This document shows positions 6,081-60,967 of a stretch of 64,000 nt of DNA, one piece after another. Position 1 is the first letter of the stretch. Every line of letters starts with the position of its first letter. The DNA comes from Escherichia coli (GTDB lineage Bacteria > Pseudomonadota > Gammaproteobacteria > Enterobacterales > Enterobacteriaceae). The DNA lies in assembly GCF_003334765.1 (NCBI RefSeq), contig NZ_QOWT01000003.1; one strand, 5' to 3'. Under the pieces are notes generated by a model. The model was not told the origin of the DNA, did no database searches, and saw only the letters and a program-made list of their open reading frames with translations. The translations under genes were made by a program, and so were the position numbers.

Positions 6081-6524
6081 TTAAACCTGCTTCGTCGCAG
6101 CGATAATCGCCTCGCTTAACGCATTTAACCCCTGGCTGCGTGAGGCGCTAAGCTGCGCACGTAATCCCAGCTCATCAAACAATGCCAGTGGTGACTGTGC
6201 CTGCAACTCGGCGGCGGTTTTCCCCTCAACGGCAGTCAACAACACCGCCAGCAGGCCGCGCACAATGCGCCCTTCGCTGTCGCCAAAGAAATGCATTTTG
6301 CCGTTTTCAGCCACTGTATATCCCAGCCAGACGCGGTTTTCGCATCCGGCAATCTCTTTAGCCTGCGCTTTTAACTCGTCTGGCAATGCCGGAAGCTGTT
6401 TCCCCAGCATGATCAACTGGCGATATTTATCTTCCCATTGCGTCAACGGTGCGAAGGTATTGCGTAACGTTTCTGCGGTTACGGTTGTGCCGAACGGATG
6501 TCCGGCGAATTGCGGGTTTGTCAT
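6081..6524 (-). CDS. csdE: Sulfur acceptor protein CsdE (SufE-like)
   Basis: 147-aa ORF matching CsdE/YgdK; start codon overlaps the csdA stop by 1 nt. Confidence 0.92.
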
Positions 6525-7729
6525 TAATCCACCAATAATTCCAGCGCGCGGTCAACGGCATTCACCAGCGCATCCACATCACTCTTTGTATTATATGGCG
6601 CAAAAGAGGCGCGCAGTGTGCCGGTTACGCCTAATTCTGCCAGTAGCGGCTGAGCGCAATGCTGCCCGGCCCGCAGGGCAATACCGTACTCCGCCAGCAG
6701 CGTCACCATATCGCTATGATGAACGCCAGCAAAATCAAAGGCCAGCAGGCTGGAATCCTGGCAGCGGAATGAACGAAAGCCGGGACGTTTCGCCAGCGCA
6801 TCTTCCGCCAGCGTTGCTAAGCTACGGCTCCAGCTTTCGGCCTGGTTGATATCGTAATCTGCCAGCCATTCCAGCGCCGCGCTTAATCCTATGACACCAG
6901 CGACATTTGGCGTTCCAGCTTCCAGTTTCCACGGCGCAGATTGAGTCGTGAAGCCGTCAAAACTCACTTCGTGAACCATTTTGCCGCCGCCCAGCCAGGG
7001 CGACATCGCCTCCAGCAGTTCTGATTTACCATACAGCACGCCGATACCTGTCGGGCCATACAGTTTGTGACCTGAAAAAGCATAGAAATCAATATCCAGT
7101 TGCTGAACATCCGCGGGGAAATGCACTGCCCCCTGAGCACCATCAACCATCACCACCATCCCGGCTGAATGAGCAAAGGTAATCGCTCGCGCCAGATCCG
7201 GGCAACCGCCAGTAACGTTCGACATCTGACCCAACGCCAGAATCCGACTACGGGGAGTAATCAGTTCTGGCAACAAATCGACATCCGGCAGTCGCTGCGC
7301 ATTAAGCGGCAATTTCACCACTTTGGCTCCAGTTTGTTGGGCGACCATCAGCCAGGGGACGAGGTTGGCGTGGTGTTCTGCCACGCTGACAATAATCTCA
7401 TCGCCCGGTTGCAGACGCGGACGCGCATAGCATTGTGCCACCATGTTGATGGATTCAGTGGTGCCGCGCGTCCAGACGATAGTTTTATCATCCGGTGCAT
7501 TCAGTAATTGCGCCACTTTCTCTCGTGCAGCTTCATAACGCGCGGTCAGGCGTTGGGCTTCGGCAAACTGGCTGCGATGGACGTTTCCGGCGCTCAGACT
7601 GTAAAACTGTTGGGTGGCTTCAACCACGGCTTCAGGTTTAAGCGCGGTCGCGGCGCTGTCGAGATAGACGCCCGCATCCTGTAGTGCGGGAAACTGGGCG
7701 CGAAACTGCGCGGGATTAAAAACGTTCAT
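6524..7729 (-). CDS. csdA: Cysteine sulfinate desulfinase / cysteine desulfurase CsdA (PLP-dependent)
   Basis: ORF-track frame 6524..7765; the 401-aa product starts at the ATG at 7729 ([16 protein letters not shown]...); class V aminotransferase fold. Confidence 0.93.
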
Positions 7730-46658: not shown

Positions 46659-47053
46659 GTGTTCCCCGCGCCAGCGGGGATAAACCGGCAAAAACCGGGC
46701 AATCGCAAAAAGGCGTAATGTGTTCCCCGCGCCAGCGGGGATAAACCTGTGTTTGCGGCATTAACGCTCACCAGCATTTCGTGTTCCCCGCGCCAGCGGG
46801 GATAAACCGACGTGGTCATGGGTGCTGCTGTTGCAGAGCCAGTGTTCCCCGCGCCAGCGGGGATAAACCGAGCAGATACACGGCTTTGTATTCCGTGCGC
46901 CCGTGTTCCCCGCGCCAGCGGGGATAAACCGAATAGCAATAGTCCATAGATTTGCGAAAACAGGTGTTCCCCGCGCCAGCGGGGATAAACCGGAGCCTGA
47001 CGAGACTACTGAGGCCGTTCTGTCGAGTTCCCCGCGCCAGCGGGGATAAACCA
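46659..47053 (+). CRISPR. Type I-E CRISPR array, 7 repeats and 6 spacers, no cas genes in window
   Basis: 29-bp repeat GTGTTCCCCGCGCCAGCGGGGATAAACCG starting at 46659, 46720, 46781, 46842, 46903, 46964 and 47025 (exact 61-bp period, 32-bp spacers); the last repeat is degenerate (GAG..., final base A). Positions cross-checked against ORF-track frames that translate the repeats. Confidence 0.97.
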
Positions 47054-47523
47054 CCATATAACCCGTTATCTCTTTCTCAAGTTTTTATATTAGCAGTACT
47101 TGTAATAAGCAACATATCCACGTAACACCTCATGTTCAAAATAGTTCTCCATGCCAGAGAGGTTCACAATTATCGATACAAAAAATTAAATTTAATCAAA
47201 GTGTTATTTGTATGATTCTTAAATCGTTAAGAAATTTTAATCTATTATTTTTTTAATATTGAATTAATGCCTGTTAATTTTTTCTTTAGAATAACAGTAT
47301 ATTTTTTAAGCTTGTTATTCATTGGTTAAGTAATAAATCTGGAAGTTTGTCTTTGTTTTGAGGCTAATGAGTGGTTTTACATAACCGCCTCTATACGCTG
47401 TTGATGAATAGTTCTTATGAATAAAGATATCCAGTTCATACTTTAAGTGAAAATTGATAAAGTGCGATTCGTATTGTCTTTTATTCTAAAGACATCGAGT
47501 GTAGTTAATATTCCTTGTAAAAA

Positions 47524-47644
47524 CAGGGATAAACCGAACTAGTTAAAGTTTTTATTATGTTCCCTGCATCAGCGGGGATAAACCGGACTTGTTATCATTT
47601 TTTAAGTTGTCGAACTTATGTTCCCCGCGTCAGCGGGGATAACC
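47524..47644 (+). CRISPR. Degenerate CRISPR mini-array (2 decayed repeats plus a partial repeat)
   Basis: cagggataaaccg (partial), atgttccctgcatcagcggggataaaccg at 47557 and atgttccccgcgtcagcggggataacc at 47618; 61-bp period between the last two; preceded by about 470 bp of very AT-rich DNA. Confidence 0.8.
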
Positions 47645-47691
47645 ATTCAGGTATGTTCAGGCCGGGCAGTTTCCCGCCCGGCCTTCCTCAC

Positions 47692-49170
47692 TTACGCATT
47701 CGACCAGCTCTGGATCGAATCCACATTCCCCAATTCCCCATGCATCACTTCATACGATTTTTTCAGGATCACATCAGTATGTTTGGTTAGGTCTTTGAAA
47801 ATGCCTTTATTCATCGCGTCGTAGCGTTTGGCATTGCTCTCAATCGGTATAAAGATATCTTTCACGCGAACCATGTTATCGACAGCCGTTGCGTAATCCG
47901 GGTATAGCCCCAGACCTACCGCTGTATTAATCGCTGCCCCCAGGCTTGCACAACCGTTAATGGCGTTACGTCGTGCCGGAAGGTTGAACACGTCGGCAAA
48001 AATCTGCATAAACAGATCGCTGTTCGAACCGCCGCCAGTAATGATCACATGCTTCGCAAAGTGATTCATTTCATTACACATATTGTCGTAATTGTTCTTC
48101 AGCGTCAGCGCCACGCTTTCCAGTATCGAACGATATATCCATGCGTAATCCATGCTGGAATCAAAGCCGATCATAATCCCGCGTTTGTACGGTTCCCACG
48201 GATTGGTCAGCCAGTCCAGCACCGTCATCAGACCATTACAGCCTGGCGGCACACAAGAAGCTTTTTTGTTGAGTAAATCTTCCGGTGAAAGATCCTGCGC
48301 CCTGGCATCCTGAATTAACGACTCGCCTAGCATGTCGCGCAGCCAGCTCACCGTCCACATGCCTTTGCGAATACCGTAACCTTCATACAGCAATGTTTGC
48401 GGAATAGAAGACATAATCGGCCAGTACGCTACTGGATCTTTCGGCAGTGCTTTGCCGTTCATCATCAATGCGATGTAAGTGCCAAGAGAAATTACCGCCG
48501 TTTCATCATCCAGTAATCCGGCCCCCAGAGCTTCTACCGGTTTATCACTGGTGGTACAAACAACCGGCAGTCCTGCCGGGAAATGTGTCGCCAGTGCGGC
48601 TTGTGGTGTGATATGTCCGAGGACGGTGCCAGGCATTTGCACATCAAACAGCATATGACGGGGGATATTAAACTTATCCATTACCGCAGCATCTTCGCTC
48701 CATGCCCAGCTCTTATAATCCACCGGCCACTGACCAAAATAGTTGGCGATATTGTCTTTAAACTCGCCGGTTAAGCGATGCGTCAGATAACCCGAAAAAG
48801 AGGTGACATATGCCACGTCAGGGTTAGTGTGTTCGTAAGGGCGTGTAACGCGTGCATCCTGCCAGCTAATCAACGGCGCAGCAGGCGTGCCATCGGCTTT
48901 CAATAACGCACGGCAGCAACGGATGGATCCCAGACCAATACCGACAATATCTTCTTTATTCCCGGCAAACTGACTCATCAAATCGTGACCGGCAAAACAT
49001 AATGATGCCCATAAATCGTCGTCAGGATGTTCTGCAGTATCGGCATCTGGCGTGTGCATCGGCTGTAATAAGCCTTTGCCTTCGCAAACCACGTTACCTT
49101 CCAGATCGTACATCACCACTTTTGTGCTCTGACTTCCGCCATCAATCCCTATGATGTATTTTTTCGACAT
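47692..49170 (-). CDS. ygcE: FGGY-family sugar kinase (substrate unknown)
   Basis: 492-aa ORF with the FGGY N-terminus MSKKYIIGIDGGSQSTKVVMYD; matches YgcE. Confidence 0.88.
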   Translation of the reverse strand: MSKKYIIGIDGGSQSTKVVMYDLEGNVVCEGKGLLQPMHTPDADTAEHPDDDLWASLCFAGHDLMSQFAGNKEDIVGIGLGSIRCCRALLKADGTPAAPLISWQDARVTRPYEHTNPDVAYVTSFSGYLTHRLTGEFKDNIANYFGQWPVDYKSWAWSEDAAVMDKFNIPRHMLFDVQMPGTVLGHITPQAALATHFPAGLPVVCTTSDKPVEALGAGLLDDETAVISLGTYIALMMNGKALPKDPVAYWPIMSSIPQTLLYEGYGIRKGMWTVSWLRDMLGESLIQDARAQDLSPEDLLNKKASCVPPGCNGLMTVLDWLTNPWEPYKRGIMIGFDSSMDYAWIYRSILESVALTLKNNYDNMCNEMNHFAKHVIITGGGSNSDLFMQIFADVFNLPARRNAINGCASLGAAINTAVGLGLYPDYATAVDNMVRVKDIFIPIESNAKRYDAMNKGIFKDLTKHTDVILKKSYEVMHGELGNVDSIQSWSNA

Positions 49171-49196
49171 GATTTTTCTCCTGTAATTTTCCTGGC

Positions 49197-50474
49197 TTAC
49201 TTGCTGCTAGCCATTGCGGGGGCGCTATCAGCAGTACGAATTTTTTGGAACAGCAAAAAGGTAAAGACAATCACCATGCCAAGCGCCGCCATGCCCATCA
49301 GCCACATATTGCGGTAGGCTTCTGCAGCGGGCAGGGTGTCTTGCCAGTGGCCGATAATTGGGTAAACGAAGACATCCGGCAGGAATCCAATCACCGAACA
49401 AATACCTACCGTGGTGCCCATAATGTAAGACGGTGTTCTCGCTTCGCCAGGGCAGGCCCAGTACAGCCCGCGTGAGGCGTAACAGGTGAATCCCAGCAGT
49501 AAAATCAGGCCAATCCCCATCGCGACCGATTGCGGGTTAGAGTTCGTGACGAGCAGGGCAGTTAACGTCAGCAGGCCGAGTACGGAAAGGATTTGGATCA
49601 CGCGGGTAGGGGATTTCACTTTGCTGTAGGTGGTGATTATGCCGCCAAGTGGGCCGCACAGCGCGCGGAATATTTTGTTGATCACAATCCCCATGTAGCT
49701 CGCCGCCACCAGCGACATGCCATACATTTCGGTCAGATAGTTGGTGGAGTAACTCAGAATGGCGTAGATGGTGAAGACGCCAAAAATCACCATGCTGCAA
49801 TACCAGGTGGTGCTGATACGCAAAACGGCCAGGATGTCGCTAAGCTGGAATGACTGTTTTTCTTCGTTATTGGCACTGCGCAGGTTGTTGTTATCGCTAA
49901 CAAAAAACCAGCACAGAATCCCCAACAAGATGTAAACCACACTATAGATGATAATGACCGTTTTCAGGCTGGTGCTGTCATCCGGTGCAAAGCGAGAAAA
50001 GACCCACATGGTAAACACCGCCAGCGACATTACACCGACGCCGCGCAGCCCTTCCATCCAGCCCATAATTTTCCCTTGCTCGCTATGATCGCCAAGCAAC
50101 GATGCAGCTTTAATCGACACCGACCACAGCATTAAAATCGTCGTTATCGCAAAGGCGATCTGAATACAGAGCATTACCCACAGCGGTGGATACGTTGCCA
50201 TTAACAGACCCAGTAATCCGGTAATGATCATCGCGGAAGTAATCATTTTGCGGTGTGAAAATTTATCGGCAATAACGCCGCTGGGGGCATAAAGAATAAT
50301 GGCCGCAATACCAAAGGTACTCATTATTAAACCTATCTCGGTATTGCTGAATCCCATAAATTTCGCCATGGGAATTTGATAAATATAACGTAAATAAGCC
50401 AGGTCGAAACTAACGCCGCCGCTAAAACTAATTATCGCGAGGGTTATCCAACGGCGATATGAGTTGTGTTGCAT
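49197..50474 (-). CDS. yqcE: MFS transporter (substrate unknown)
   Basis: 425-aa polytopic membrane ORF; matches YqcE; co-oriented with ygcE. Confidence 0.85.
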   Translation of the reverse strand: MQHNSYRRWITLAIISFSGGVSFDLAYLRYIYQIPMAKFMGFSNTEIGLIMSTFGIAAIILYAPSGVIADKFSHRKMITSAMIITGLLGLLMATYPPLWVMLCIQIAFAITTILMLWSVSIKAASLLGDHSEQGKIMGWMEGLRGVGVMSLAVFTMWVFSRFAPDDSTSLKTVIIIYSVVYILLGILCWFFVSDNNNLRSANNEEKQSFQLSDILAVLRISTTWYCSMVIFGVFTIYAILSYSTNYLTEMYGMSLVAASYMGIVINKIFRALCGPLGGIITTYSKVKSPTRVIQILSVLGLLTLTALLVTNSNPQSVAMGIGLILLLGFTCYASRGLYWACPGEARTPSYIMGTTVGICSVIGFLPDVFVYPIIGHWQDTLPAAEAYRNMWLMGMAALGMVIVFTFLLFQKIRTADSAPAMASSK

Positions 50475-50653
50475 ATCGTATTCCCATTTGTAATAGACAA
50501 AAAAAAGAGAAAAGTAAGCCGCCCTTTCAGGTGGATTACTTTTCTCAGGTCTCTAGTAATTGAAATAATAAATAACATGGAAAGCAGAGGTGTTGTGTGA
50601 GAGTAATCACGCTTCTGCTTTTTAAAATTATTTGACAATACGAATATCACACT

Positions 50654-50669
50654 GTGATTACGATCACAT
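50654..50669. promoter_or_regulatory. Consensus CRP site in the yqcE/ygcW divergent region
   Basis: TGTGAttacgaTCACA, a perfect TGTGA-N6-TCACA. Coordinates approximate. Confidence 0.6.
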
Positions 50670-50720
50670 TAGCAGTTATGCCCTTATGCTAAAAATTATC
50701 TCCAGTTACCAGAGATAATG

Positions 50721-50768
50721 AGAAAGGTAACTTCCCTCTCGCGGGGGAAGTTACCTTTCTTTTTTTTT
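50721..50768 (+). terminator. Strong intrinsic terminator hairpin in the ygcW 5' leader (candidate attenuator)
   Basis: agaaaggtaacttccc-tctcgcgg-gggaagttacctttct, a perfect 16-bp stem, followed by about 9 T; ends about 25 nt before the ygcW ATG; no upstream + strand gene to terminate. Confidence 0.7.
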
Positions 50769-50792
50769 GCCTTACGGAAATTGGAGCTAACT

Positions 50793-51578
50793 ATGTCAAT
50801 CGAATCTCTCAATGCGTTCTCAATGGATTTTTTCTCCCTGAAAGGTAAAACCGCAATTGTTACCGGTGGGAATAGCGGTTTAGGCCAGGCATTTGCCATG
50901 GCGTTGGCCAAAGCTGGCGCAAATATCTTTATTCCTAGTTTCGTCAAAGATAACGGCGAAACAAAGGAAATGATTGAAAAACAGGGTGTTGAGGTGGACT
51001 TCATGCAGGTGGATATCACCGCAGAAGGCGCGCCGCAGAAGATTATCGCTGCTTGCTGTGAGCGTTTCGGTACAGTTGATATTCTGGTTAACAATGCCGG
51101 TATTTGTAAGCTGAATAAGGTGCTGGACTTCGGTCGTGCCGACTGGGATCCGATGATTGATGTGAACCTGACCGCCGCATTCGAGTTAAGCTATGAAGCT
51201 GCAAAAATTATGATCCCGCAGAAAAGCGGCAAAATTATTAATATCTGTTCATTGTTCTCTTACTTAGGTGGACAATGGTCACCTGCATATTCTGCCACTA
51301 AACATGCTCTTGCCGGGTTCACCAAAGCTTATTGTGATGAACTAGGTCAATATAATATTCAGGTAAATGGTATCGCCCCTGGCTATTATGCAACAGATAT
51401 TACGCTGGCGACACGCAGTAATCCAGAAACCAATCAGCGCGTTCTTGATCATATTCCGGCAAACCGTTGGGGCGATACTCAGGATTTAATGGGCGCAGCC
51501 GTATTCCTCGCAAGTCCGGCATCGAATTATGTCAACGGGCATTTATTAGTGGTTGATGGCGGTTATTTAGTGCGCTAA
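50793..51578 (+). CDS. ygcW: Short-chain dehydrogenase/reductase (KduD-like)
   Basis: ORF-track frame 50718..51578; the 261-aa product starts at the ATG at 50793 (MSIESLNAF...), with Rossmann motif TGGNSGLG and catalytic YxxxK. Confidence 0.88.
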   Translation: MSIESLNAFSMDFFSLKGKTAIVTGGNSGLGQAFAMALAKAGANIFIPSFVKDNGETKEMIEKQGVEVDFMQVDITAEGAPQKIIAACCERFGTVDILVNNAGICKLNKVLDFGRADWDPMIDVNLTAAFELSYEAAKIMIPQKSGKIINICSLFSYLGGQWSPAYSATKHALAGFTKAYCDELGQYNIQVNGIAPGYYATDITLATRSNPETNQRVLDHIPANRWGDTQDLMGAAVFLASPASNYVNGHLLVVDGGYLVR

Positions 51579-51647
51579 CCCATAACGGTGGTTTCTGTTT
51601 TCTCTTATTAATGATTATTCCATTTTTATTATCAGGAAGGAATTACT

Positions 51648-53102
51648 ATGTCTTTATCTCGCGCAGCGATTGTCGACCAGCTAAAGGAAATTGTTGGTGC
51701 AGATCGCGTAATTACCGATGAAACAGTATTAAAGAAAAACAGTATTGACCGTTTTCGTAAATTTCCGGATATTCATGGCATTTATACTTTGCCGATTCCG
51801 GCAGCGGTCGTAAAACTCGGTTCCACAGAGCAAGTATCCCGTGTGCTGAATTTTATGAATGCGCACAAAATTAACGGTGTGCCGCGTACCGGTGCTTCCG
51901 CCACCGAAGGTGGGCTGGAAACTGTTGTAGAAAACTCGGTGGTGCTCGACGGCTCCGCCATGAATCAAATCATTAATATTGATATTGAGAATATGCAGGC
52001 GACGGCGCAATGTGGTGTTCCGCTGGAAGTGCTGGAAAACGCGTTGCGTGAAAAAGGTTACACCACGGGGCATTCTCCGCAGTCAAAGCCGCTGGCGCAG
52101 ATGGGCGGCCTGGTAGCAACCCGAAGTATCGGGCAGTTCTCCACACTCTACGGCGCAATCGAAGATATGGTCGTTGGTCTGGAAGCAGTATTGGCTGATG
52201 GCACCGTCACACGCATTAAAAACGTGCCACGCCGCGCGGCTGGCCCGGACATTCGTCACATCATCATCGGCAACGAAGGTGCATTGTGCTATATCACTGA
52301 AGTAACAGTGAAAATCTTTAAATTCACCCCGGAAAACAACCTCTTCTACGGCTATATCCTGGAAGACATGAAAACCGGCTTCAACATCCTGCGTGAAATC
52401 ATGGTGGAAGGGTATCGTCCGTCAATCGCTCGTTTGTATGACGCTGAAGATGGCACCCAACACTTCACCCATTTTGCCGACGGAAAATGCGTGCTGATCT
52501 TTATGGCTGAAGGTAACCCTCGCATTGCGAAGGTGACGGGCGAAGGGATTGCGGAAATCGTTGCCCGCTACCCGCAATGCCAGCGCGTGGACAGCAAGCT
52601 GATCGAAACCTGGTTTAACAACCTGAACTGGGGACCGGATAAAGTGGCTGCCGAACGTGTGCAGATCCTCAAAACCGGCAACATGGGCTTTACCACCGAA
52701 GTATCCGGCTGCTGGAGCTGCATCCACGAAATCTACGAAAGCGTTATTAACCGTATTCGTACTGAGTTCCCGCACGCCGACGACATCACCATGCTGGGCG
52801 GTCATTCCTCTCATAGCTATCAGAACGGCACCAACATGTACTTCGTCTACGATTACAACGTCGTTGACTGTAAGCCGGAAGAGGAAATCGACAAGTACCA
52901 CAATCCGCTCAACAAGATCATCTGTGAAGAAACCATTCGCCTCGGCGGTTCGATGGTGCACCACCACGGTATCGGTAAACATCGCGTTCACTGGAGCAAA
53001 CTGGAACACGGCAGCGCGTGGGCGTTGCTGGAAGGGCTGAAAAAGCAGTTCGATCCTAATGGCATTATGAATACGGGTACTATCTATCCGATTGAAAAAT
53101 AA
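51648..53102 (+). CDS. ygcU: FAD-linked oxidoreductase (FAD-binding PCMH type)
   Basis: 484-aa ORF matching YgcU. Confidence 0.85.
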   Translation: MSLSRAAIVDQLKEIVGADRVITDETVLKKNSIDRFRKFPDIHGIYTLPIPAAVVKLGSTEQVSRVLNFMNAHKINGVPRTGASATEGGLETVVENSVVLDGSAMNQIINIDIENMQATAQCGVPLEVLENALREKGYTTGHSPQSKPLAQMGGLVATRSIGQFSTLYGAIEDMVVGLEAVLADGTVTRIKNVPRRAAGPDIRHIIIGNEGALCYITEVTVKIFKFTPENNLFYGYILEDMKTGFNILREIMVEGYRPSIARLYDAEDGTQHFTHFADGKCVLIFMAEGNPRIAKVTGEGIAEIVARYPQCQRVDSKLIETWFNNLNWGPDKVAAERVQILKTGNMGFTTEVSGCWSCIHEIYESVINRIRTEFPHADDITMLGGHSSHSYQNGTNMYFVYDYNVVDCKPEEEIDKYHNPLNKIICEETIRLGGSMVHHHGIGKHRVHWSKLEHGSAWALLEGLKKQFDPNGIMNTGTIYPIEK

Positions 53103-53195
53103 TGTGTCAGGCAGCGTTCCGCGATGACGGGGCGTTGCCTTTTCGGCTTCTCAGGCGAGAAGCCGTTCTTATTACCGGACAATGAAGGGGTAAAG

Positions 53196-54533
53196 ATGAA
53201 CACTTCACCGGTGCGAATGGATGATTTACCGCTTAACCGTTTTCACTGCCGCATTGCTGCGCTCACTTTCGGCGCACACCTGACCGACGGTTATGTTCTC
53301 GGCGTCATTGGTTACGCCATTATTCAGCTTACGCCCGCCATGCAACTGACGCCGTTTATGGCGGGAATGATCGGCGGCTCGGCGCTCCTTGGTTTGTTCC
53401 TTGGCAGCCTGGTTCTTGGGTGGATCTCCGACCATATTGGTCGGCAAAAAATCTTCACCTTCAGCTTTTTGCTGATTACGCTTGCTTCGTTTTTACAATT
53501 TTTTGCCACCACGCCAGAGCATCTTATTGGACTGCGCATTTTGATTGGCATTGGTCTGGGAGGCGATTATTCAGTAGGTCACACCTTGCTGGCTGAATTT
53601 TCCCCGCGCCGCCATCGCGGTATTTTGCTGGGCGCATTCAGCGTGGTGTGGACCGTAGGCTATGTGCTGGCAAGTATTGCCGGACATCACTTTATTTCCG
53701 AAAACCCGGAGGCCTGGCGCTGGCTACTGGCATCGGCAGCTCTGCCCGCGTTGTTGATTACGTTATTACGCTGGGGAACGCCAGAATCACCACGCTGGCT
53801 ACTGCGCCAGGGGCGTTTTGCAGAAGCTCACGCTATCGTGCATCGCTATTTTGGTCCCCATGTTTTACTGGGCGATGAAGTGGTAACGGCGACCCATAAA
53901 CACATCAAAACCTTGTTCTCTTCGCGTTACTGGCGGCGCACGGCGTTTAACAGCGTCTTCTTTGTCTGCCTCGTAATCCCATGGTTTGTGATTTATACCT
54001 GGCTGCCAACTATCGCCCAGACTATTGGTCTGGAAGATGCGCTGACTGCCAGCCTGATGCTTAATGCGTTGTTAATTGTGGGCGCGCTGCTGGGATTAGT
54101 TCTGACGCACCTGCTGGCACATCGCAAATTTTTGCTGGGAAGTTTTTTGCTGCTGGCGGCAACGCTGGTAGTCATGGCCTGTTTGCCTTCCGGCAGTTCA
54201 TTAACGCTGCTGCTTTTTGTTCTCTTCAGCACCACCATTTCGGCAGTCAGTAATCTGGTGGGCATTTTGCCTGCGGAAAGTTTTCCTACTGACATTCGCT
54301 CGCTGGGCGTCGGTTTTGCCACTGCCATGAGTCGACTTGGCGCGGCGGTAAGTACTGGCCTGCTGCCGTGGGTGCTGGCGCAGTGGGGAATGCAAGTCAC
54401 CTTATTGCTCCTGGCGACAGTGTTGTTGGTTGGTTTTGTTGTGACCTGGCTATGGGCACCAGAAACTAAAGCCCTCCCGCTGGTGGCGGCGGGAAATGTA
54501 GGAGGTGCGAATGAACATTCTGTTAGCGTTTAA
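53196..54533 (+). CDS. ygcS: MFS sugar-porter-family transporter
   Basis: ORF-track frame 53124..54533; the 445-aa product starts at the ATG at 53196 (MNTSPVRMDDLPLNRFH...). Confidence 0.85.
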   Translation: MNTSPVRMDDLPLNRFHCRIAALTFGAHLTDGYVLGVIGYAIIQLTPAMQLTPFMAGMIGGSALLGLFLGSLVLGWISDHIGRQKIFTFSFLLITLASFLQFFATTPEHLIGLRILIGIGLGGDYSVGHTLLAEFSPRRHRGILLGAFSVVWTVGYVLASIAGHHFISENPEAWRWLLASAALPALLITLLRWGTPESPRWLLRQGRFAEAHAIVHRYFGPHVLLGDEVVTATHKHIKTLFSSRYWRRTAFNSVFFVCLVIPWFVIYTWLPTIAQTIGLEDALTASLMLNALLIVGALLGLVLTHLLAHRKFLLGSFLLLAATLVVMACLPSGSSLTLLLFVLFSTTISAVSNLVGILPAESFPTDIRSLGVGFATAMSRLGAAVSTGLLPWVLAQWGMQVTLLLLATVLLVGFVVTWLWAPETKALPLVAAGNVGGANEHSVSV

Positions 54534-55290
54534 AGCCGAACCGGATGCCGGAATGCTGGCGGAAAAAGAGTGGCAGGCGGCGGCTCAGGGTAAAAGCGGA
54601 CCGGATATTTCGCTACTGCGAAGTTTACTCGGTGCTGATGAACAGGCCGCTGCCGCGCTGCTGTTGGCGCAGAGAAAAAACGGTACGCCGATGTCTTTAA
54701 CCGCGTTGAGCATGGGGGATGAACGGGCATTGCACTGGCTGCGCTATCTCATGGCTCTTGGGTTTGAGGAAGCTGTATTGCTGGAGACGGCGGCAGATCT
54801 GCGCTTTGCGCCGGAATTTGTCGCTCGCCATATTGCCGAATGGCAGCATCAGAATCCGCTGGATCTGATAATTACCGGCTGCCAAAGCAGCGAAGGGCAG
54901 AATGGGCAAACGCCATTTTTGCTGGCGGAAATGCTGGGCTGGCCCTGCTTCACCCAGGTGGAGCGTTTCACTCTCGACGCGCTGTTTATCACCCTCGAAC
55001 AGCGTACTGAACATGGGTTGCGTTGTTGCCGGGTTCGCTTGCCTGCGGTGATTGCCGTGCGTCAGTGCGGTGAAGTGGCCTTGCCAGTACCGGGAATGCG
55101 CCAGCGAATGGCTGCGGGGAAAGCAGAAATTATCCGTAAAACTGTTGCTGCCGAAATGCCAGCGATGCAGTGTCTGCAACTGGCAAGAGCAGAGCAACGA
55201 CGCGGAGCGACGCTGATTGATGGGCAAACGGTAGCAGAAAAAGCTCAAAAGCTATGGCAGGACTATTTACGCCAAAGGATGCAGCCATGA
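54511..55290 (+). CDS. ygcR: Electron-transfer-flavoprotein beta-subunit-like protein
   Basis: ORF-track frame 54505..55290 (GTG); the ATG at 54511 is preceded by GGAGG; matches YgcR; overlaps the ygcS 3' end. Confidence 0.85.
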   Translation: MNILLAFKAEPDAGMLAEKEWQAAAQGKSGPDISLLRSLLGADEQAAAALLLAQRKNGTPMSLTALSMGDERALHWLRYLMALGFEEAVLLETAADLRFAPEFVARHIAEWQHQNPLDLIITGCQSSEGQNGQTPFLLAEMLGWPCFTQVERFTLDALFITLEQRTEHGLRCCRVRLPAVIAVRQCGEVALPVPGMRQRMAAGKAEIIRKTVAAEMPAMQCLQLARAEQRRGATLIDGQTVAEKAQKLWQDYLRQRMQP

Positions 55291-56147
55291 ATATCGCAAT
55301 TGTGACAATAAATCAGGAGAATGCCGCAATAGCAAGCTGGCTGGCGGCGCAGGATTTCAGCGGTTGTACCCTGGCGCACTGGCAGATTGAACCTCAGCCT
55401 GTAGTGGCGGAACAGGTGCTGGATGCGTTGGTGGAACAGTGGCAGCGAACGCCTGCGGACGTTGTTCTCTTTCCGCCGGGAACGTTTGGCGATGAACTGT
55501 CGACCCGGCTGGCCTGGCGTTTACATGGTGCAAGCATCTGCCAGGTGACTTCGTTAGATATTCCAACCGTAAGCGTGCGCAAATCCCACTGGGGAAATGC
55601 GCTAACGGCGACGCTGCAAACAGAAAAACGCCCGCTATGCCTTTCCCTGGCGCGTCAGGCGGGAGCAGCGAAAAACGCCACGTTGCCCTCTGGAATGCAA
55701 CAACTGAACATTGTCCCGGGTGCGCTTCCGGACTGGCTGGTTAGCACAGAGGATCTGAAAAATGTTACCCGCGACCCATTAGCTGAGGCCAGACGGGTGC
55801 TGGTGGTGGGGCAGGGCGGAGAGGCAGATAACCAGGAAATCGCTATGCTGGCAGAAAAGCTGGGAGCCGAAGTGGGCTACAGTCGGGCGCGAGTGATGAA
55901 CGGTGGCGTTGATGCTGAAAAAGTGATTGGTATTTCCGGACATCTGCTGGCACCTGAGGTGTGTATTGTTGTTGGCGCTTCTGGCGCAGCAGCGTTAATG
56001 GCGGGCGTACGCAATAGCAAGTTTGTGGTGGCGATTAATCATGACGCCAGCGCTGCGGTATTTTCACAGGCAGATGTTGGCGTGGTTGATGACTGGAAAG
56101 TGGTGCTGGAGGCACTGGTGACAAACATTCACGCAGATTGCCAATAA
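55287..56147 (+). CDS. ygcQ: Electron-transfer-flavoprotein alpha-subunit-like protein
   Basis: ORF-track frame 55254..56147; ATG at 55287 (MNIAIVTINQ...) overlaps the ygcR stop (ATGA). Confidence 0.85.
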   Translation: MNIAIVTINQENAAIASWLAAQDFSGCTLAHWQIEPQPVVAEQVLDALVEQWQRTPADVVLFPPGTFGDELSTRLAWRLHGASICQVTSLDIPTVSVRKSHWGNALTATLQTEKRPLCLSLARQAGAAKNATLPSGMQQLNIVPGALPDWLVSTEDLKNVTRDPLAEARRVLVVGQGGEADNQEIAMLAEKLGAEVGYSRARVMNGGVDAEKVIGISGHLLAPEVCIVVGASGAAALMAGVRNSKFVVAINHDASAAVFSQADVGVVDDWKVVLEALVTNIHADCQ

Positions 56148-56153
56148 CGTGTT

Positions 56154-56260
56154 GCCGGATGATCCTGCCTACGGTTCTGGCCTGGGGACTTGTAGGCCTG
56201 ATAAGACGCGTCAAGCGTCGCATCAGGCGCTGAATGTCGGATGTGGCGTGCGGCCTACAA
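56154..56260. repeat. REP/BIME cluster (about 3 REP units)
   Basis: gccggatgatcctgcctacgg / tgtaggcctgataagacgcgtcaagcgtcgcatcaggcgc / gtcggatgtggcgtgcggcctacaa between convergent ygcQ and ygcP. Coordinates approximate. Confidence 0.8.
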
Positions 56261-56294
56261 ATCAAACCAAATTCAATTGGTTACGATTATCCCG

Positions 56295-56870
56295 TCAAAG
56301 TAATTTTTTCGCTAACGTCCAGACCCCGGTATTCGTGGTGGAAAGCGCCACGACACCCGCGTTAATCGCATTACGCGCATCTTCTTCATCGCACACCAGC
56401 CCACCGGCAATCAGCGGTTGGCGGATTTTCTCTGTCACCCAGCCCAGCACTTTGGGCATACAGCCTGGCAGGATCTCAATACAATCCGGATTCGATTGCG
56501 CAACTTGCTTATCAATGTTGTGAAACGAAATTGAATCAACAATAAACAGGCGATGAATACAGAAAAAACCTTCCGCTCTTGCCGCTTTCAACATTGAGGC
56601 TTTGGTACTGATAATGCCGTCCGCCTCGGTCACCAGTTTCAAAAACTGAATAACGACTTCTTTATTTGACGCGCCTTCCAGCAAATCAACATGAATAAAA
56701 GCATATTTCCCGGCGTTCTTAATCTTTTTAACGATATTACTGATGGTGCAGATATTGCCGTACAACACGGAAATAAATTGGCATTCAGAATCGATTGCCA
56801 GTTGCAGGCTGGCATTATCTTTAACGGCAGCAATCACCGGATTCTGGCGGAGCAGGTGTAAGAGGGGCAT
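56295..56870 (-). CDS. ygcP: GlpP-family (glycerol-3-phosphate-responsive antiterminator-like) regulator
   Basis: 191-aa ORF matching YgcP. Confidence 0.85.
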   Translation of the reverse strand: MPLLHLLRQNPVIAAVKDNASLQLAIDSECQFISVLYGNICTISNIVKKIKNAGKYAFIHVDLLEGASNKEVVIQFLKLVTEADGIISTKASMLKAARAEGFFCIHRLFIVDSISFHNIDKQVAQSNPDCIEILPGCMPKVLGWVTEKIRQPLIAGGLVCDEEDARNAINAGVVALSTTNTGVWTLAKKLL

Positions 56871-56886
56871 AAATTATCCTTATTAT

Positions 56887-57147
56887 TTATCCAAAGCGGT
56901 AGGTGATGCCGAATCCGGAAGGCGGATAGCGCCACTGTTGTAGTGTTGATTCGTCGCACAGCAAACGGCAGGTGCCACACTCCAGGCAACTGCGATAGTC
57001 AATACGTAAGTTACCTTCCGGTGTGAGCGAAAAAAGACCTGCCGGACAGGCGTTAATCAACCGTTCTGCCGTCTGGCGCTCAACGGAGTCAGCCGGAACA
57101 ATGTGCGGCGCATCAGCAACGCGCCAGAGATTACGGGCTACAGACAT
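56887..57147 (-). CDS. ygcO: Ferredoxin-like protein (FixX-like)
   Basis: ORF-track frame 56887..57183; the 86-aa product starts at the ATG at 57147 (MSVARNLWRV...), with Cys cluster C..C..C...C. Confidence 0.82.
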   Translation of the reverse strand: MSVARNLWRVADAPHIVPADSVERQTAERLINACPAGLFSLTPEGNLRIDYRSCLECGTCRLLCDESTLQQWRYPPSGFGITYRFG

Positions 57148-58409
57148 CGCAGACTCCTGATAACATCGCCCGCCAGATGCCACAGGCCGTGACGACGTAA
57201 ATGATGCCAGAATAACTGGCGCAGCGGTGGAACAGGTTTATCACCCTGATCCCATAAATCGCGGGAAATATCCTGCATTAACGCAGGCCACGTACGGTAC
57301 CATCCCGGGCGTTGCAAAAGCGCCGGAACATGCTGATAACGCTGTAGAACATCCCACAGCAGGCTGCGCTCTACGTTGTGATGATAAAGCGGAAACAGAT
57401 TTTGCGGCTCGCGGTGCTGGCAGGCGCTTATCAGCGTTTGTGCCGCCGCCTGCGCGCCAGTCAGCGCCATATCCATGCCGCGCACGGAAATTCCGGTATT
57501 GACGCAACTGCGCAACGCATCGCCCACCAGCAGCCAGCCGTTACCGGCGTATTGCACCGGCATACTGTGCAAGCCACCTTCTGGCACCAGATGCGCACCA
57601 TACTCCAGTGATTCCGTGTTTTTGATAAGCGGGCGCACTGCCGGATGCGCTTTAAAGCGAGTCAGCAGCTCGCTTGCCGGAACACGACTTTGCGTAAGGG
57701 AAGAGAGCGGGCAAACAATCCCTAACGAGAGCGTTTGTTGATTAGTATAAAGAAATGCGCCGCCGGGTAAGTCATCACAGATCCTGCCGCTGAACAGCAA
57801 CGCTGCGCCTTCGTTATTCTCCAGATGAAAACGTTCTTCAATAGCGGATGTTTCCAGCGACAGCACTTCTTTGATCCCCAACGCCATCGCTTCGCCAGCA
57901 GGACGAGCCACTAACCCGTGACGTTCAGCCAGGACGCTGTTGGCACCTTCTGCCAGCACCACATAACGGGCGCGGAGAATATCGTCACCACAAATAACGC
58001 CACAGACTCTGCCGTTTTCTTCATACAGTGCATCCACCGTCGCTCCGGGGATGCATTCGACACCTTCTTTTTCGGCTTCGGCAACCAGCCACGGATCGAA
58101 TCGTGCACGTAATACACTCCAGGATTCACCGCCGGGCTGTAAGCTGGAAAACGTCGTTACGCCATCGGGCGTTAACAGGGAAAGGCTTTCGTGAGTGATG
58201 CGTCGTTCAAGAGGCGCGGTCAGATGAAATTGCGGGAGGAGTTCCGCGAGTGCATGGGTATATAACCGCCCGCCGGAAAGATTTTTGCTGCCGGGGATTT
58301 CAGCGCGTTCCAGTAACAAAACGGATAAACCCGCTCGCGCGCAGCGTAACGCGCAAGCGGTGCCTGCAATACCGGCACCAATAATAATAATGTCGCAGTC
58401 GTCTTCCAT
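57138..58409 (-). CDS. ygcN: FAD-dependent oxidoreductase (ETF-QO / FixC-like)
   Basis: ORF-track frame 57138..58439; the 423-aa product starts at the ATG at 58409 (MEDDCDIIIIGAGIAGTACA, FAD GxGxxG). Confidence 0.85.
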   Translation of the reverse strand: MEDDCDIIIIGAGIAGTACALRCARAGLSVLLLERAEIPGSKNLSGGRLYTHALAELLPQFHLTAPLERRITHESLSLLTPDGVTTFSSLQPGGESWSVLRARFDPWLVAEAEKEGVECIPGATVDALYEENGRVCGVICGDDILRARYVVLAEGANSVLAERHGLVARPAGEAMALGIKEVLSLETSAIEERFHLENNEGAALLFSGRICDDLPGGAFLYTNQQTLSLGIVCPLSSLTQSRVPASELLTRFKAHPAVRPLIKNTESLEYGAHLVPEGGLHSMPVQYAGNGWLLVGDALRSCVNTGISVRGMDMALTGAQAAAQTLISACQHREPQNLFPLYHHNVERSLLWDVLQRYQHVPALLQRPGWYRTWPALMQDISRDLWDQGDKPVPPLRQLFWHHLRRHGLWHLAGDVIRSLRCL

Positions 58410-58486
58410 GTCATGCCCCAGATATCCAGAACACAACACCCTAACATAGCGTTACTTAAGGGAAATTGACCGCCGACACACTCTTA

Positions 58487-58852
58487 TCATTCGCCGCGAT
58501 AGATACAACCTGCGGTGCAGGTTTCTTTTACCATCACCGCACTTAACAGCGGCACAACGGGTTTAACCTGATCCCAAATCCATTTTGCTAAAACCTCGCT
58601 GGTTGGGTTTTCCAGACCTGGAATATCATTGAGATAATGGTGATCGAGGCGCTCGTAGGTTGGTTTAAACGCCGCTTTTAGTTCAGCGAAATCGATAATC
58701 CAGCCCGTATGCGGATCGACTTCCCCGGTAATTTCCAGTCGCACCATAAAGGAATGCCCGTGCAGGCGACCACATTTATGCCCTTCCGGGACGTGTGGTA
58801 AGCGGTGAGCGGCTTCGAAGGTGAAATCTTTAAATAACGTGGTGGACATCAT
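58487..58852 (-). CDS. queD: 6-carboxy-5,6,7,8-tetrahydropterin synthase
   Basis: ORF-track frame 58487..58936 (TTG); the 121-aa product starts at the ATG at 58852 ([34 protein letters not shown]). Confidence 0.9.
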
Positions 58853-59167
58853 AATTTCTCTACAGGACGATAAAACCGCCGTAGAGTACCGGAAAGGCTG
58901 TTTTTTCGCATTATCTAAAACGACTTTGTTGCGCAAAATCGCTGATTTATCTTAATGATTGGCTAAATTCATTTGTTTTTCATTAGGTTGGTTAATCTAT
59001 TTTGTTGTTAAAGACTATTGCTAAAACAGGTTAGTCGATTTGGTTATTAGTTATCGCTATCCCGTCTTTAATCCACACCGTTTGCCCCGTTAACCTTACC
59101 TTCTCTTCTGTTTTATGGGCGCTGACAGGGCGCAGAAACAGCTTTGCTTACTGGAACATAACGACGC

Positions 59168-60967
59168 ATGACGACACAGGTCCCACCTTCCGCGTTGCTT
59201 CCGTTGAACCCGGAGCAACTGGCACGCCTTCAGGCGGCCACGACCGATTTAACTCCCACCCAGCTTGCCTGGGTTTCTGGCTATTTCTGGGGCGTACTCA
59301 ATCAGCAGCCTGCTGCGCTTGCAGCGACGCCAGCGCCAGCCGCAGAAATGCCGGGTATAACTATTATCTCCGCCTCGCAAACCGGCAATGCGCGCCGGGT
59401 TGCTGAAGCATTACGTGATGATTTATTAGCAGCAAAACTGAACGTTAAGCTGGTGAACGCGGGCGACTATAAATTCAAACAAATCGCCAGCGAAAAACTG
59501 CTCATCGTAGTGACGTCAACGCAAGGGGAAGGGGAACCGCCGGAAGAAGCCGTCGCGCTGCATAAGTTCCTGTTCTCCAAAAAAGCGCCAAAGCTGGAAA
59601 ACACCGCGTTTGCCGTGTTTAGCCTCGGCGATAGCTCTTATGAATTTTTCTGCCAGTCCGGGAAAGATTTCGACAGCAAGCTGGCGGAACTGGGTGGTGA
59701 ACGCCTGCTCGACCGTGTCGATGCCGATGTTGAATACCAGGCTGCTGCCAGCGAGTGGCGCGCCCGCGTGGTTGATGCGCTTAAATCGCGTGCGCCTGTC
59801 GCGGCACCTTCGCAATCCGTCGCTACTGGCGCGGTAAATGAAATCCACACCAGCCCGTACAGCAAAGACGCGCCGCTGGTGGCTAGCCTCTCTGTTAACC
59901 AGAAAATTACCGGGCGTAACTCTGAAAAAGACGTTCGCCATATCGAAATTGACTTAGGTGACTCGGGCCTGCGTTACCAGCCGGGTGACGCGCTGGGCGT
60001 CTGGTATCAGAACGATCCGGCACTGGTGAAAGAACTTGTCGAACTGCTGTGGCTGAAAGGCGATGAACCTGTCACCGTCGAGGGCAAAACGTTGCCTCTG
60101 AACGAAGCGCTACAGTGGCACTTCGAACTGACCGTCAACACCGCCAACATTGTTGAGAATTACGCCACGCTTACCCGCAGTGAAACACTGCTGCCGCTGG
60201 TGGGCGATAAAGCGAAGTTACAGCATTACGCCGCGACGACGCCGATTGTTGACATGGTGCGTTTCTCCCCGGCACAGCTTGATGCCGAAGCGCTAATTAA
60301 TCTGCTGCGCCCGCTGACGCCGCGTCTCTATTCCATTGCCTCCTCGCAGGCGGAAGTCGAGAACGAAGTACACGTCACCGTTGGTGTGGTGCGTTACGAC
60401 GTGGAAGGCCGCGCCCGTGCCGGTGGTGCCTCCAGCTTCCTCGCTGACCGCGTGGAAGAAGAGGGCGAAGTCCGCGTATTTATCGAACATAACGATAACT
60501 TCCGCCTGCCAGCCAATCCAGAAACCCCGGTGATTATGATTGGCCCAGGCACCGGCATCGCGCCGTTCCGCGCCTTTATGCAGCAACGTGCTGCCGATGA
60601 AGCGCCGGGAAAAAACTGGCTGTTCTTTGGCAACCCGCACTTTACGGAAGATTTCCTCTACCAGGTGGAGTGGCAGCGCTACGTCAAAGAGGGTGTGCTG
60701 ACGCGGATCGATCTCGCCTGGTCGCGCGACCAAAAAGAAAAAGTTTACGTACAAGACAAACTGCGCGAACAGGGCGCGGAGCTGTGGCGCTGGATCAATG
60801 ACGGTGCCCACATTTATGTCTGCGGTGACGCTAATCGCATGGCGAAAGACGTTGAGCAGGCACTTCTGGAAGTGATTGCCGAATTTGGTGGCATGGACAC
60901 CGAAGCGGCGGATGAATTTTTAAGTGAGCTGCGCGTAGAGCGCCGTTATCAGCGAGATGTCTACTAA
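59168..60967 (+). CDS. cysJ: Sulfite reductase [NADPH] flavoprotein alpha subunit
   Basis: 599-aa ORF with flavodoxin plus FAD/NADPH reductase domains; matches CysJ. Confidence 0.96.

Follow-up and report, generated by a model that had tools for sequence, protein, structure and literature searches.

What does the ygc island of Escherichia coli break down, and how is it switched on? The island occupies positions 47692-58409 of the 64,000-nucleotide stretch of contig NZ_QOWT01000003.1 analysed here (the window), running from the stop codon of ygcE to the start codon of ygcN as placed by open reading frame (ORF) listing and megablast. The original prediction, made from the letters of this stretch, had drawn exactly these bounds and counted eleven genes within them; the RefSeq record that is 100% identical over 47000-59500 annotates ten (ygcE, yqcE, ygcW, ygcU, ygcS, ygcR, ygcQ, ygcP, ygcO and ygcN). 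Its family assignments, namely an FGGY kinase, two major facilitator superfamily (MFS) transporters, a short-chain dehydrogenase/reductase (SDR), an FAD-linked oxidase, electron-transfer flavoprotein (ETF) beta- and alpha-like proteins, and FixC-, FixX- and GlpP-like proteins, were all reproduced with NCBIfam and Pfam. Its statement that the substrate is not established agrees with these searches, in which none of the ygc proteins reached an equivalog cut-off. The ygc genes are a real nutrient-breakdown cluster, an already-known gene set to which no substrate has been assigned.

The same prediction took an ETF/FixABCX-like module as central and proposed oxidation of a sugar or polyol. Its picture of a catabolic island, with a flavoprotein able to feed electrons through ETF to a FixCX-type quinone reductase, stands, whereas the ETF/FixABCX module as the core does not. 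Sugar or polyol oxidation is too simple in view of the active-site residues that the flavoenzyme YgcU shares with alkyldihydroxyacetonephosphate synthase (ADPS), and of the BCCT/OpuA transporters and methylamine and formaldehyde genes found outside Enterobacterales. A regulatory leader RNA and the CRP sites had been overlooked.

Judged from gene content across species, the conserved heart of the cluster is the kinase, the dehydrogenase and the ADPS-like flavoenzyme. As a whole, we give an even chance to a model in which CRP and antitermination control the catabolism of a 1-substituted glycerol-like compound to an analogue of dihydroxyacetone phosphate (DHAP), which is then cut by YgcU. New here are the cross-phylum core, the ADPS-type site of YgcU, the demotion of ETF/FixCX, a link to onium metabolism, and a GlpP-type leader RNA that occurs twice in E. 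coli.

A core shared across phyla

The comparison used 80 loci, one genome per species; the ten E. coli proteins were mapped by tblastn, which covered 83 loci, and the neighbouring ORFs were clustered. Counts of leader, YgcP and ETF presence come from 51 diverse loci. Enterobacterales share YgcW, YgcU, YgcE, YgcP and a transporter with Bacillota, Desulfobacterota, SAR324, Vibrionaceae and Actinomycetota. YgcU, a FAD_binding_4/FAD-oxidase_C flavoenzyme of 484 aa (ygcU, 51648-53102, plus strand), is 65-75% identical in Sporomusa, Halobacillus, Alkalihalobacillus, Clostridia, Desulfobacula (Desulfobacterota), SAR324, Photobacterium (Vibrionaceae) and Actinomycetota. Beside it there is always or nearly always YgcW (65-97% identity), YgcE (43-92%), YgcP (50-97%) and a transporter. 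YgcW homologues lie directly upstream of YgcU in nearly all loci, and an FGGY kinase homologue adjoins YgcU in 28 of the 37 non-enterobacterial ones. The transporter is of the YqcE-like MFS type in Enterobacterales, where YqcE is 69-93% identical in all loci, of the BCCT type in 14 non-enterobacterial loci, and an OpuAC/ProW-type ATP-binding cassette (ABC) system in some Bacillota. The Halobacillus cluster consists only of YgcP, YgcW, YgcE, YgcU and a BCCT transporter, and these can therefore form a complete unit.

The ETF pair YgcR/Q is common in strict anaerobes and Enterobacteriaceae. Its genes are missing from the clusters of Erwinia, Pantoea, Izhakiella, Ewingella, several Serratia, Halobacillus, Thalassobacillus, Alkalihalobacillus, SAR324 and Saccharopolyspora, and homologues of FixC and FixX (YgcN/O) occur solely in those Enterobacterales loci that also carry YgcR/Q. 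The module also changes faster. Compared with E. coli, the Klebsiella and Citrobacter proteins show 93-97% identity for YgcW, YgcU and YgcP, against 56-63% for YgcQ, 70-74% for YgcR and 62-78% for YgcN/O; in Klebsiella spallanzanii the values are 97% for YgcW, 96% for YgcP and 94% for YgcU, against 78% for YgcN, 73% for YgcR, 71% for YgcO and 59% for YgcQ. Because it is absent from many complete clusters and diverges faster than the core, the ETF/FixCX module (YgcRQ, YgcNO) is, on these comparisons, an optional add-on and not the heart of the cluster. Comparative genomics, which the original prediction had proposed as a check, thus showed the cluster to be conserved even across phyla, with ETF/FixCX outside the conserved part.

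The proteins of this module are themselves distant from their namesakes. ygcR (54511-55290, plus strand) encodes a divergent ETF beta of 259 aa with weak ETF-beta matches (43 bits; 1efp_B, 3e-11), and ygcQ (55287-56147, plus strand) a short, divergent ETF alpha of 286 aa whose FAD domain aligns with human ETF alpha (1efv, 8e-23). YgcR has diverged too far for a residue-level reading of the second FAD and the NADH site that mark the small subunit of a bifurcating ETF. YgcQ has SGAAAL for the human SGAIQH and IGISGH at the Thr266 region, positions that we take to be FAD contacts of the human protein; the canonical (group 1) ETF alpha FAD contacts are not kept. Its alignment with LctC starts only at LctC residue 139, and it has no [4Fe-4S] ferredoxin domain at its N terminus. 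ygcO (56887-57147, minus strand) encodes a FixX-like ferredoxin of 86 aa, and ygcN (57138-58409, minus strand) a FixC/ETF-quinone-oxidoreductase-like flavoprotein of 423 aa (PRK10015, 380 bits vs 466). All four Fix subunit types are detected, each under its cut-off (FixA 32 vs 219, FixB 62 vs 549, FixC 359 vs 610 and FixX 82 vs 166 bits). In strict anaerobes the YgcR/Q-type ETF is followed by FAD2, a paralogue of YgcU, and sometimes then by a second, LctBC-like ETF with a ferredoxin domain. Clostridia and Photobacterium carry a separate LctBCD-like set (FAD2, EtfB2 and ferredoxin-domain EtfA) beside the YgcU-type set, the ferredoxin-domain EtfA being a separate gene in two loci (L004 and L065); since both occur side by side, the two sets are distinct.

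Some further observations concern the spread of the core genes. A variant cluster in Lacticaseibacillus (L087, CP132485.1, 6342-11668) has a leader element, a 72-aa ORF, an iron-type alcohol dehydrogenase and a GlpP-like gene, followed by an FGGY kinase and a YgcU homologue of 49% identity that keeps the HHH loop and the catalytic residues. Here the alcohol dehydrogenase stands in for the SDR, so the pathway family is broader than the ygc type. E. coli YgcE shares 54-57% identity with the kinases found in Bacillota clusters but only 43-49% with those found in Erwinia, Serratia and Budviciaceae, while YgcU and YgcW follow taxonomy; this suggests a kinase replacement, or two kinase lineages within Enterobacterales. 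A metagenome-assembled genome (MAG) labelled Planctomycetota (L005, contig JADFMM010000147.1) encodes a YgcU that is 100% identical to the E. coli protein, which is most likely E. coli contamination of the bin and not a planctomycete gene.

YgcU and the proposed chemistry

The best solved relative of YgcU is ADPS/AGPS (4bby, profile E 1.4e-55), which comes before glycolate oxidase, LctD and the D-lactate dehydrogenases. The ADPS catalytic residues Arg419, Tyr578 and His615-617 align with R262, Y398 and H438-440 of YgcU. Two of these positions are marked in the PDB by the mutants R419H (4bc7) and Y578F (4bca), corresponding to R262 and Y398, and the third, the ADPS His615-617 loop 'GGSLSHHHGVGKLR', aligns with 'GGSLVHHHGIGKHR' in YgcU. 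All of these residues are invariant in the cross-phylum YgcU alignment. The N-terminal region of ADPS is missing from YgcU, with the alignment beginning at residue 193 (4bby) or 137 (2uuu), and we do not class YgcU as an ADPS because the first 140-190 ADPS residues are absent. An AlphaFold2 model built on a 12-sequence alignment was of low confidence (predicted local distance difference test score 66.8); its top Foldseek matches were all AGPS, which we take as support only. The mechanism of ADPS is established knowledge of that enzyme, and by analogy with it the active site of YgcU argues for a DHAP-type phosphorylated ketone as substrate and for covalent flavin chemistry beside the carbonyl. 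Its genomic surroundings, with transporters, a kinase, an SDR and CRP control, favour soluble substrates, and a biosynthetic role in ether-lipid formation was set aside as at odds with the transporters, the CRP control and the antitermination.

YgcU also belongs to the GlcD/D-lactate dehydrogenase/LctD superfamily, and an ordinary oxidation of a sugar or polyol has to be set beside the ADPS-like chemistry. The kinase would then make the phosphate, YgcU would act as a GlpD/EryB- or LctD-like dehydrogenase, and two electrons would pass from it to ETF (YgcRQ), on to YgcNO and so to quinone, with ETF as the central element. The contiguity of ygcU, etfB and etfA in most anaerobes, as in LctBCD, favours this, as do the matches of the LctBCD structure 7qh2 to both YgcU and YgcQ, the presence of FixC- and FixX-like genes, and a regulator of the glycerol-3-phosphate type. 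However, YgcU has the ADPS Arg/Tyr/HHH set and lacks the D-2-hydroxyacid dehydrogenase site (GH..H and EHG), having HHHG where enzymes of the FAD2 and LctD type have EHG. The paralogue FAD2 keeps this His/His/Glu site in the GH..H and EHGVGK motifs typical of D-2-hydroxyacid dehydrogenases. The lack of ETF in many complete clusters, and of FixCX in all non-enterobacterial ones, also speaks against it, and outside Enterobacterales both the transporters and the neighbouring genes indicate onium compounds and not sugars. We regard such an oxidation as doubtful, if deserving of serious attention.

The ADPS-like reading is completed by the two enzymes encoded next to YgcU. ygcW (50793-51578, plus strand) encodes a KduD/gluconate-5-dehydrogenase-like SDR of 261 aa (PDB match 4z9y, 1.8e-58) that falls under the KduD equivalog cut-offs (NF005390, 350.6 bits vs 369; TIGR01832, 276 vs 339); by these scores it is close to KduD, yet not a member. 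ygcE (47692-49170, minus strand), the second gene of the yqcE-ygcE operon, encodes an FGGY-family kinase of 492 aa. Its best NCBIfam matches are XylB (142 bits) and LsrK (137 bits), far under the cut-offs, and its best PDB match is LsrK 5ya0 (1.9e-29); none of the equivalogs XylB, GlpK, LsrK, GntK, AraB, FucK and RhaB was reached, the best being 142 bits against a cut-off of 380. KduD and gluconate 5-dehydrogenase oxidise a secondary alcohol beside a terminal CH2OH, and FGGY kinases phosphorylate such terminal hydroxyls. In the proposed pathway YgcW would likewise oxidise the secondary alcohol next to a terminal CH2OH and YgcE would phosphorylate that CH2OH, so that together, perhaps in this order, they would convert X-CH2-CHOH-CH2OH to the DHAP analogue X-CH2-CO-CH2-OP, in which X is the substituent. 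Because X sits where ADPS has the acyl group of acyl-DHAP, the proposed leaving-group position is the same. YgcU would then carry out ADPS-type covalent flavin chemistry at the X-bearing carbon, so that X leaves and a C3 phosphate remains, either DHAP or, were the step oxidative, a 2-oxoaldehyde phosphate.

This last step could run in two ways. A redox-neutral substitution by water would give DHAP and would make ETF dispensable. A two-electron oxidation would instead give a hemiaminal or hemiacetal that collapses to the 2-oxoaldehyde phosphate, and would explain both ETF and the alternative aldo-keto reductase described below. YgcR/Q and YgcN/O would serve as an accessory branch linking the flavin of YgcU with the quinone pool under anoxic conditions. 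A more specific proposal, which we put forward tentatively and with less confidence than the model as a whole, is that the core encodes a widespread and hitherto undescribed route that breaks a hydrolysis-resistant bond by way of the DHAP analogue, with YgcU, as a soluble enzyme, expelling the substituent to leave DHAP; the bond could be C-N+ in a quaternary amine, C-S, or C-O in a glyceryl ether, for example the head group of a betaine lipid, and that it is switched by a new GlpP-type antitermination subfamily that reaches E. coli.

Hints to the nature of X come from neighbouring genes. Outside Enterobacterales, BCCT transporters (adjacent in the 14 loci mentioned above), OpuAC/ProW-type ABC transporters, MttB-superfamily methyltransferases (six loci) and a BetI-like regulator are found near the cluster. 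In an actinomycetotal MAG (L076) the ygc-type cluster stands beside a Pyl-type MtbB, a dimethylamine:corrinoid methyltransferase (5536-6600, minus strand; 383.8 bits vs a cut-off of 369.1). Its ORF stops at model position 355 of 466, where an in-frame amber (pyrrolysine) codon is expected, which suggests pyrrolysine use in this actinomycete. In ETF-less Enterobacterales a second accessory module lies beside the YgcS-type gene, consisting of a stand-alone Fae homologue (135-143 bits vs a cut-off of 118), an aldo-keto reductase akin to the L-glyceraldehyde-3-phosphate and methylglyoxal reductases, and a GcvA-like LysR regulator. A SAR324 genome has the same aldo-keto reductase (71% identity) and Fae (55%) beside BCCT-SDR-YgcU-FGGY. 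The Fae loci, in Erwinia, Serratia and Pantoea, are L033 (1332-2889, minus strand), L042 (1241-2801, minus strand) and L049/L085 (5033-7390, plus strand); we know of no tetrahydromethanopterin synthesis in these three genera. Against NCBIfam the BCCT proteins of the clusters gave generic BCCT matches only, with no clue to the substrate. These neighbours make a quaternary or tertiary methylamine, or a group bearing a betaine, the likeliest X outside Enterobacterales. In E. coli, X may be an anionic or neutral analogue imported by the MFS transporters, which is conceivable because its transporters are of that class.

The first of these transporters, YqcE (yqcE, 49197-50474, minus strand; 425 aa), is of the anion:cation-symporter type (D-galactonate-transporter subfamily, 64 bits); a copy in Photobacterium has 58% identity and its own leader element upstream. 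The second, YgcS (ygcS, 53124-54533, plus strand; 469 aa), resembles sugar porters or aromatic-acid symporters and is confined to Enterobacterales clusters, ETF-bearing and ETF-less alike. Overexpression of YgcS raised the titre of nicotinamide mononucleotide in engineered E. coli by up to 68%, and the authors suspected uptake of nicotinamide (PMC8601175). This is suggestive of a possible link between YgcS and pyridinium- or onium-type cargo.

Three particular substrates were considered and set aside. Conversion of a tetritol through erythrulose-1-phosphate to DHAP and formaldehyde would explain Fae but misfits the BCCT/OpuA transporters and the flavoenzyme. Carnitine would leave the kinase without a role. 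Glycerophosphocholine offers plausible chemistry, but a simple hydrolytic route for it already exists.

Leader RNAs, YgcP and CRP

The island comprises three transcription units, yqcE-ygcE, ygcWUSRQ and ygcNOP. In the 318-bp spacer between them (50475-50792), yqcE and ygcW are each preceded by a very strong intrinsic terminator on their own sense strand. The yqcE leader element (50499-50563, minus strand; 66.6 bits and E 3.9e-11 with the covariance model R1) ends 24 nt before the yqcE start codon. Its antiterminator strands are at 50560-50555 (AUUACU) and 50540-50535 (AGUAAU), its terminator stem at 50546-50507 and its U tract (U8) at 50506-50499; the terminator has a dG of -20.5 kcal/mol (z -4.45) and the antiterminator one of -1.4 kcal/mol. 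The ygcW leader element (50702-50769, plus strand; R1 66.5 bits, E 4.2e-11) ends about 23 nt before the ygcW start codon, with antiterminator strands at 50705-50710 (GUUACC) and 50726-50731 (GGUAAC), a 19-bp terminator stem at 50720-50761 and a U tract (U9) at 50762-50770. Here the terminator dG is -31 kcal/mol (z -7.8) and the antiterminator dG -6.7 kcal/mol. Both terminators are preceded by the motif RUUACY-AGAG-N3-5-GAGAAARGUAAY, in which RUUACY is complementary to RGUAAY, and the latter lies in the 5' arm of the terminator.

The same 60-70-nt element stands upstream of ygcW homologues in Photobacterium, Halobacillus, Thalassobacillus, Geosporobacter, Dethiosulfatibacter, Sporomusa, Syntrophomonadaceae and Saccharopolyspora. 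A regular expression for the motif found 115 instances, and R1, built from 31 leader copies, found 66 sites in the 51 diverse loci and only the two leaders within the window. Leaders are placed before SDR operons, before MFS and BCCT transporter genes, and before ygcU in Clostridia. The ygcW leader is present in 5064 of 5426 E. coli genomes and is at least 99% identical in 4871 of them. RefSeq annotates no feature under the E. coli copy, and in an Rfam search of the window region and three other loci (E<=1) the leader matched no family.

The two competing helices are both conserved. Pairing in the six-pair antiterminator helix reaches 100% for the seed alignment and 98.2% for the alignment of 66 sequences, which had been fitted to the terminator and not to this helix, and the helix shows compensatory changes from G-C to A-U in 15 sequences, from U-A to C-G in three and from A-U to G-C in one. 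As a control, sliding the antiterminator partner by 1-3 columns lowered pairing to 18-65%. For the terminator, pairing is 96% and compensation is seen at 10 of its 15 pairs. That the covariation of the antiterminator does not simply echo the terminator arms is shown by the covarying U35, which the terminator of the E. coli yqcE leader leaves unpaired. With a dG of -1.4 to -6.7 kcal/mol the competing hairpin is weak beside the terminator (-20 to -31), so termination would be the default and a factor must stabilise the alternative.

This factor is very probably YgcP, as its distribution indicates. ygcP (56295-56870, minus strand), the last gene of ygcN-ygcO-ygcP, encodes a GlpP-family (G3P_antiterm) putative RNA-binding antiterminator of 191 aa, whose residues 12-184 match PF04309 over its full length (positions 1-173 of 173, E 1.6e-62) and which also matches Listeria GlpP (3kts, 1.2e-27). 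YgcP and the element occur together in 32 of the 51 loci, YgcP alone in none, the element alone in three (two of them short contigs) and neither in 16 (Fisher p 1.4e-10, uncorrected for phylogeny). An Enterococcus glpP locus (L086) with a glycerol-3-phosphate (G3P) dehydrogenase operon has a leader of the same layout, CUGCU / AGAGAGAUGAGAGUAU / AGCGG, overlapping a terminator, which R1 scores at only 22 bits, and the Lacticaseibacillus variant cluster carries another such leader. The ygc leaders thus look like a tight subfamily of a general GlpP-family RNA target. We know of no prior description of a GlpP-type mechanism in a Gram-negative enterobacterium.

The hairpins might instead be plain intrinsic terminators or insulators, with YgcP not their regulator but, for example, a TIM-barrel-like enzyme. 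In favour of this, YgcP is only a predicted RNA binder, and the hairpins are palindromic and score on both strands. But yqcE and ygcW diverge, and hairpins that sit between the divergent promoters and their own start codons cannot end upstream genes. The conservation of a second, competing helix with compensatory changes and the strict co-occurrence with YgcP also make this explanation very improbable, and the prototype GlpP is an established antiterminator that acts on leader terminators (PMC10573289; PMC9604022).

Two CRP sites precede the leaders. A CRP-like site, TGTGAGAGTAATCACG (50596-50611), with one mismatch to TGTGA-N6-TCACA, has its centre about 40.5 nt ahead of the yqcE leader's first base and is conserved in the Enterobacteriaceae upstream regions compared. 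For TGTGATTACGATCACA (50653-50668), the sole perfect TGTGA-N6-TCACA in the window, the centre lies 41.5 nt ahead of where the ygcW leader begins. Binding of CRP to this perfect site has been shown in vivo in enterotoxigenic E. coli by chromatin immunoprecipitation (PMC4287617) and in vitro by Footprint-seq, with a Kd of about 1.7 nM (PMC12871828). We infer from the spacing only that both act as class II CRP sites, and likewise where transcription starts, near 50702 and 50563. On the preferred reading CRP-cAMP would activate both divergent promoters, and the yqcE-ygcE and ygcW-U-S-R-Q transcripts would start with a leader of about 66 nt that terminates by default. YgcP, presumably carrying a phosphorylated intermediate, would stabilise the short helix with its purine-rich AGAG..GAGAAA loop, so that the terminator does not form and transcription reads through. 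A G3P-like intermediate would, by analogy, suit a GlpP-type sensor.

The spacer between ygcW and yqcE is also bound by H-NS and by RpoD holoenzyme, as found by genomic systematic evolution of ligands by exponential enrichment (PMC3946193). With H-NS at its promoters the island may be largely silent under laboratory conditions, which could explain missing phenotypes. It could also be that the E. coli island is a cryptic, H-NS-silenced remnant of horizontal acquisition in which ETF/FixCX is decaying, with no role in E. coli though functional elsewhere. The 70% identity of YgcU across phyla implies horizontal spread, YgcR, YgcQ, YgcN and YgcO diverge several times faster than the core, island and leader are mostly missing from about 360 of 5426 complete E. 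coli genomes, and our literature search turned up no phenotype. Nevertheless, none of the ten ORFs is broken in the window. Megablast finds at least 80% of the island query in 5060 of the 5426 genomes, and the leader is as strongly conserved as described above. The high-affinity CRP site is bound in vivo, and translational coupling is retained between genes, with overlaps of 23 nt at ygcS/ygcR, 4 nt at ygcR/ygcQ and 10 nt at ygcN/ygcO. We consider a cryptic remnant unlikely.

Several points weigh against the proposed pathway and switch. The substrate class is deduced only from the regiochemistry of KduD and gluconate 5-dehydrogenase and from the ADPS residues, and ordinary sugars are the substrates of many SDRs and FGGY kinases. 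As ADPS catalysis is redox-neutral, there is no obvious need for a dedicated ETF, and the close linkage of ygcU, etfB and etfA in strict anaerobes favours a true dehydrogenase step. E. coli has MFS and not BCCT transporters, and the case for quaternary amines may not be transferable to it. On the regulatory side, RNA binding by YgcP and its ligand are predictions, the co-occurrence statistic carries no phylogenetic correction, the transcription starts are drawn from spacing, and H-NS on the promoters may keep the island largely silent in the laboratory. A full-text literature search on the ygc gene names and on combinations of FGGY, BCCT, ETF, ADPS, GlpP and ether cleavage found no functional study and no experiment tying any ygc gene to a substrate, only the binding of CRP, H-NS and RpoD and the effect of YgcS on nicotinamide mononucleotide.

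Setting, significance and known systems

The island is flanked on one side by queE and a type I-E CRISPR array and on the other by queD and cysJIH. The array, which the original prediction had rightly placed beside the cluster, is annotated at 46720-47053 in the identical RefSeq record, with the repeat seen at 46781-46932, and lies about 640 bp from ygcE. In the 147-bp gap between the convergent genes ygcQ and ygcP, positions 56195-56268 (minus strand) give a weak match to the Rfam family naRNA4 (34 bits vs a gathering score of 59.5), and the sequence resembles a REP/BIME-type palindromic element (GCCTGATAAGACGCG...CGCATCAGGC).

These results make ten ygc genes, which are present in most E. 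coli strains, directly testable. YgcP and the two 66-nt leaders form a defined candidate RNA-protein switch that could be used as a reporter for the inducer, the candidate substrates are narrowed to 3-substituted 1,2-propanediols, and three catalytic elements of YgcU are pinpointed. The leader would be a new RNA-family entry and the first GlpP-type attenuator recognised in Enterobacterales. If the chemistry holds, it would be a new oxygen-independent route for the degradation of onium compounds or ethers in gut, marine-sediment and halophilic bacteria, and the ether-lipid synthase fold would gain a bacterial catabolic role; some such routes could release methylamines.

Of the known systems, ADPS/AGPS (EC 2.5.1.26) is closest to YgcU in sequence and fold among solved structures, and the Arg, Tyr and His-loop elements are common to both. 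ADPS is however about 580-660 aa long, and YgcU lacks its N-terminal region of about 190 residues. Unlike ADPS, ygcU stands in an operon for soluble-nutrient catabolism with a kinase, an SDR and transporters, with no evidence of a lipid substrate, and ETF genes, for which a redox-neutral ADPS would have no use, often come after it. GlpK/GlpD and the Brucella EryA/EryB pair resemble the proposed ygc pathway in using an FGGY kinase and then a flavoenzyme on the phosphorylated product, and in being induced by a phosphorylated intermediate. YgcU, in contrast, belongs to the VAO/ADPS superfamily and not to the DAO/GlpD one, and the ygc system always has an extra SDR step.

The FixABCX/EtfABCX complexes, including E. 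coli fixABCX (carnitine) and ydiQRST, have homologues of all four subunit types in the ygc island. There, however, the genes are split over two convergent operons (ygcRQ and ygcNOP), are unlinked to cai, nif or acyl-CoA dehydrogenase genes, and encode ETF subunits far more divergent than FixAB (43-76 bits). In LctBCD of Acetobacterium woodii (7qh2) the gene for a GlcD-family flavoenzyme likewise adjoins etfB and etfA, and LctD and LctC are relatives of YgcU and YgcQ, but YgcU is without the EHG-type site and YgcQ without the N-terminal ferredoxin domain.

The regulatory layer is most like the GlpP system of Bacillus subtilis, in which GlpP relieves the leader terminators of glpD, glpFK and glpTQ (PMC10573289; PMC9604022). 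YgcP matches PF04309 over its full length, the operons that it would regulate open with leader terminators, the product of the kinase is the presumed inducer, and catabolite control forms a second layer. The Enterococcus glpP leader has the same helix, AGAGA..GAGAG loop and terminator layout. The genes concerned differ, being yqcE-ygcE and ygcWUSRQ in place of glpF, glpK, glpD or glpT, and canonical glp neighbours accompany only distant homologues, as in Enterococcus. YgcP is only about 33-35% identical to Listeria and Enterococcus GlpP, and the ygc leaders form a tight sequence family of their own, scoring 66-80 bits with R1 against 22 bits for the glp leader.

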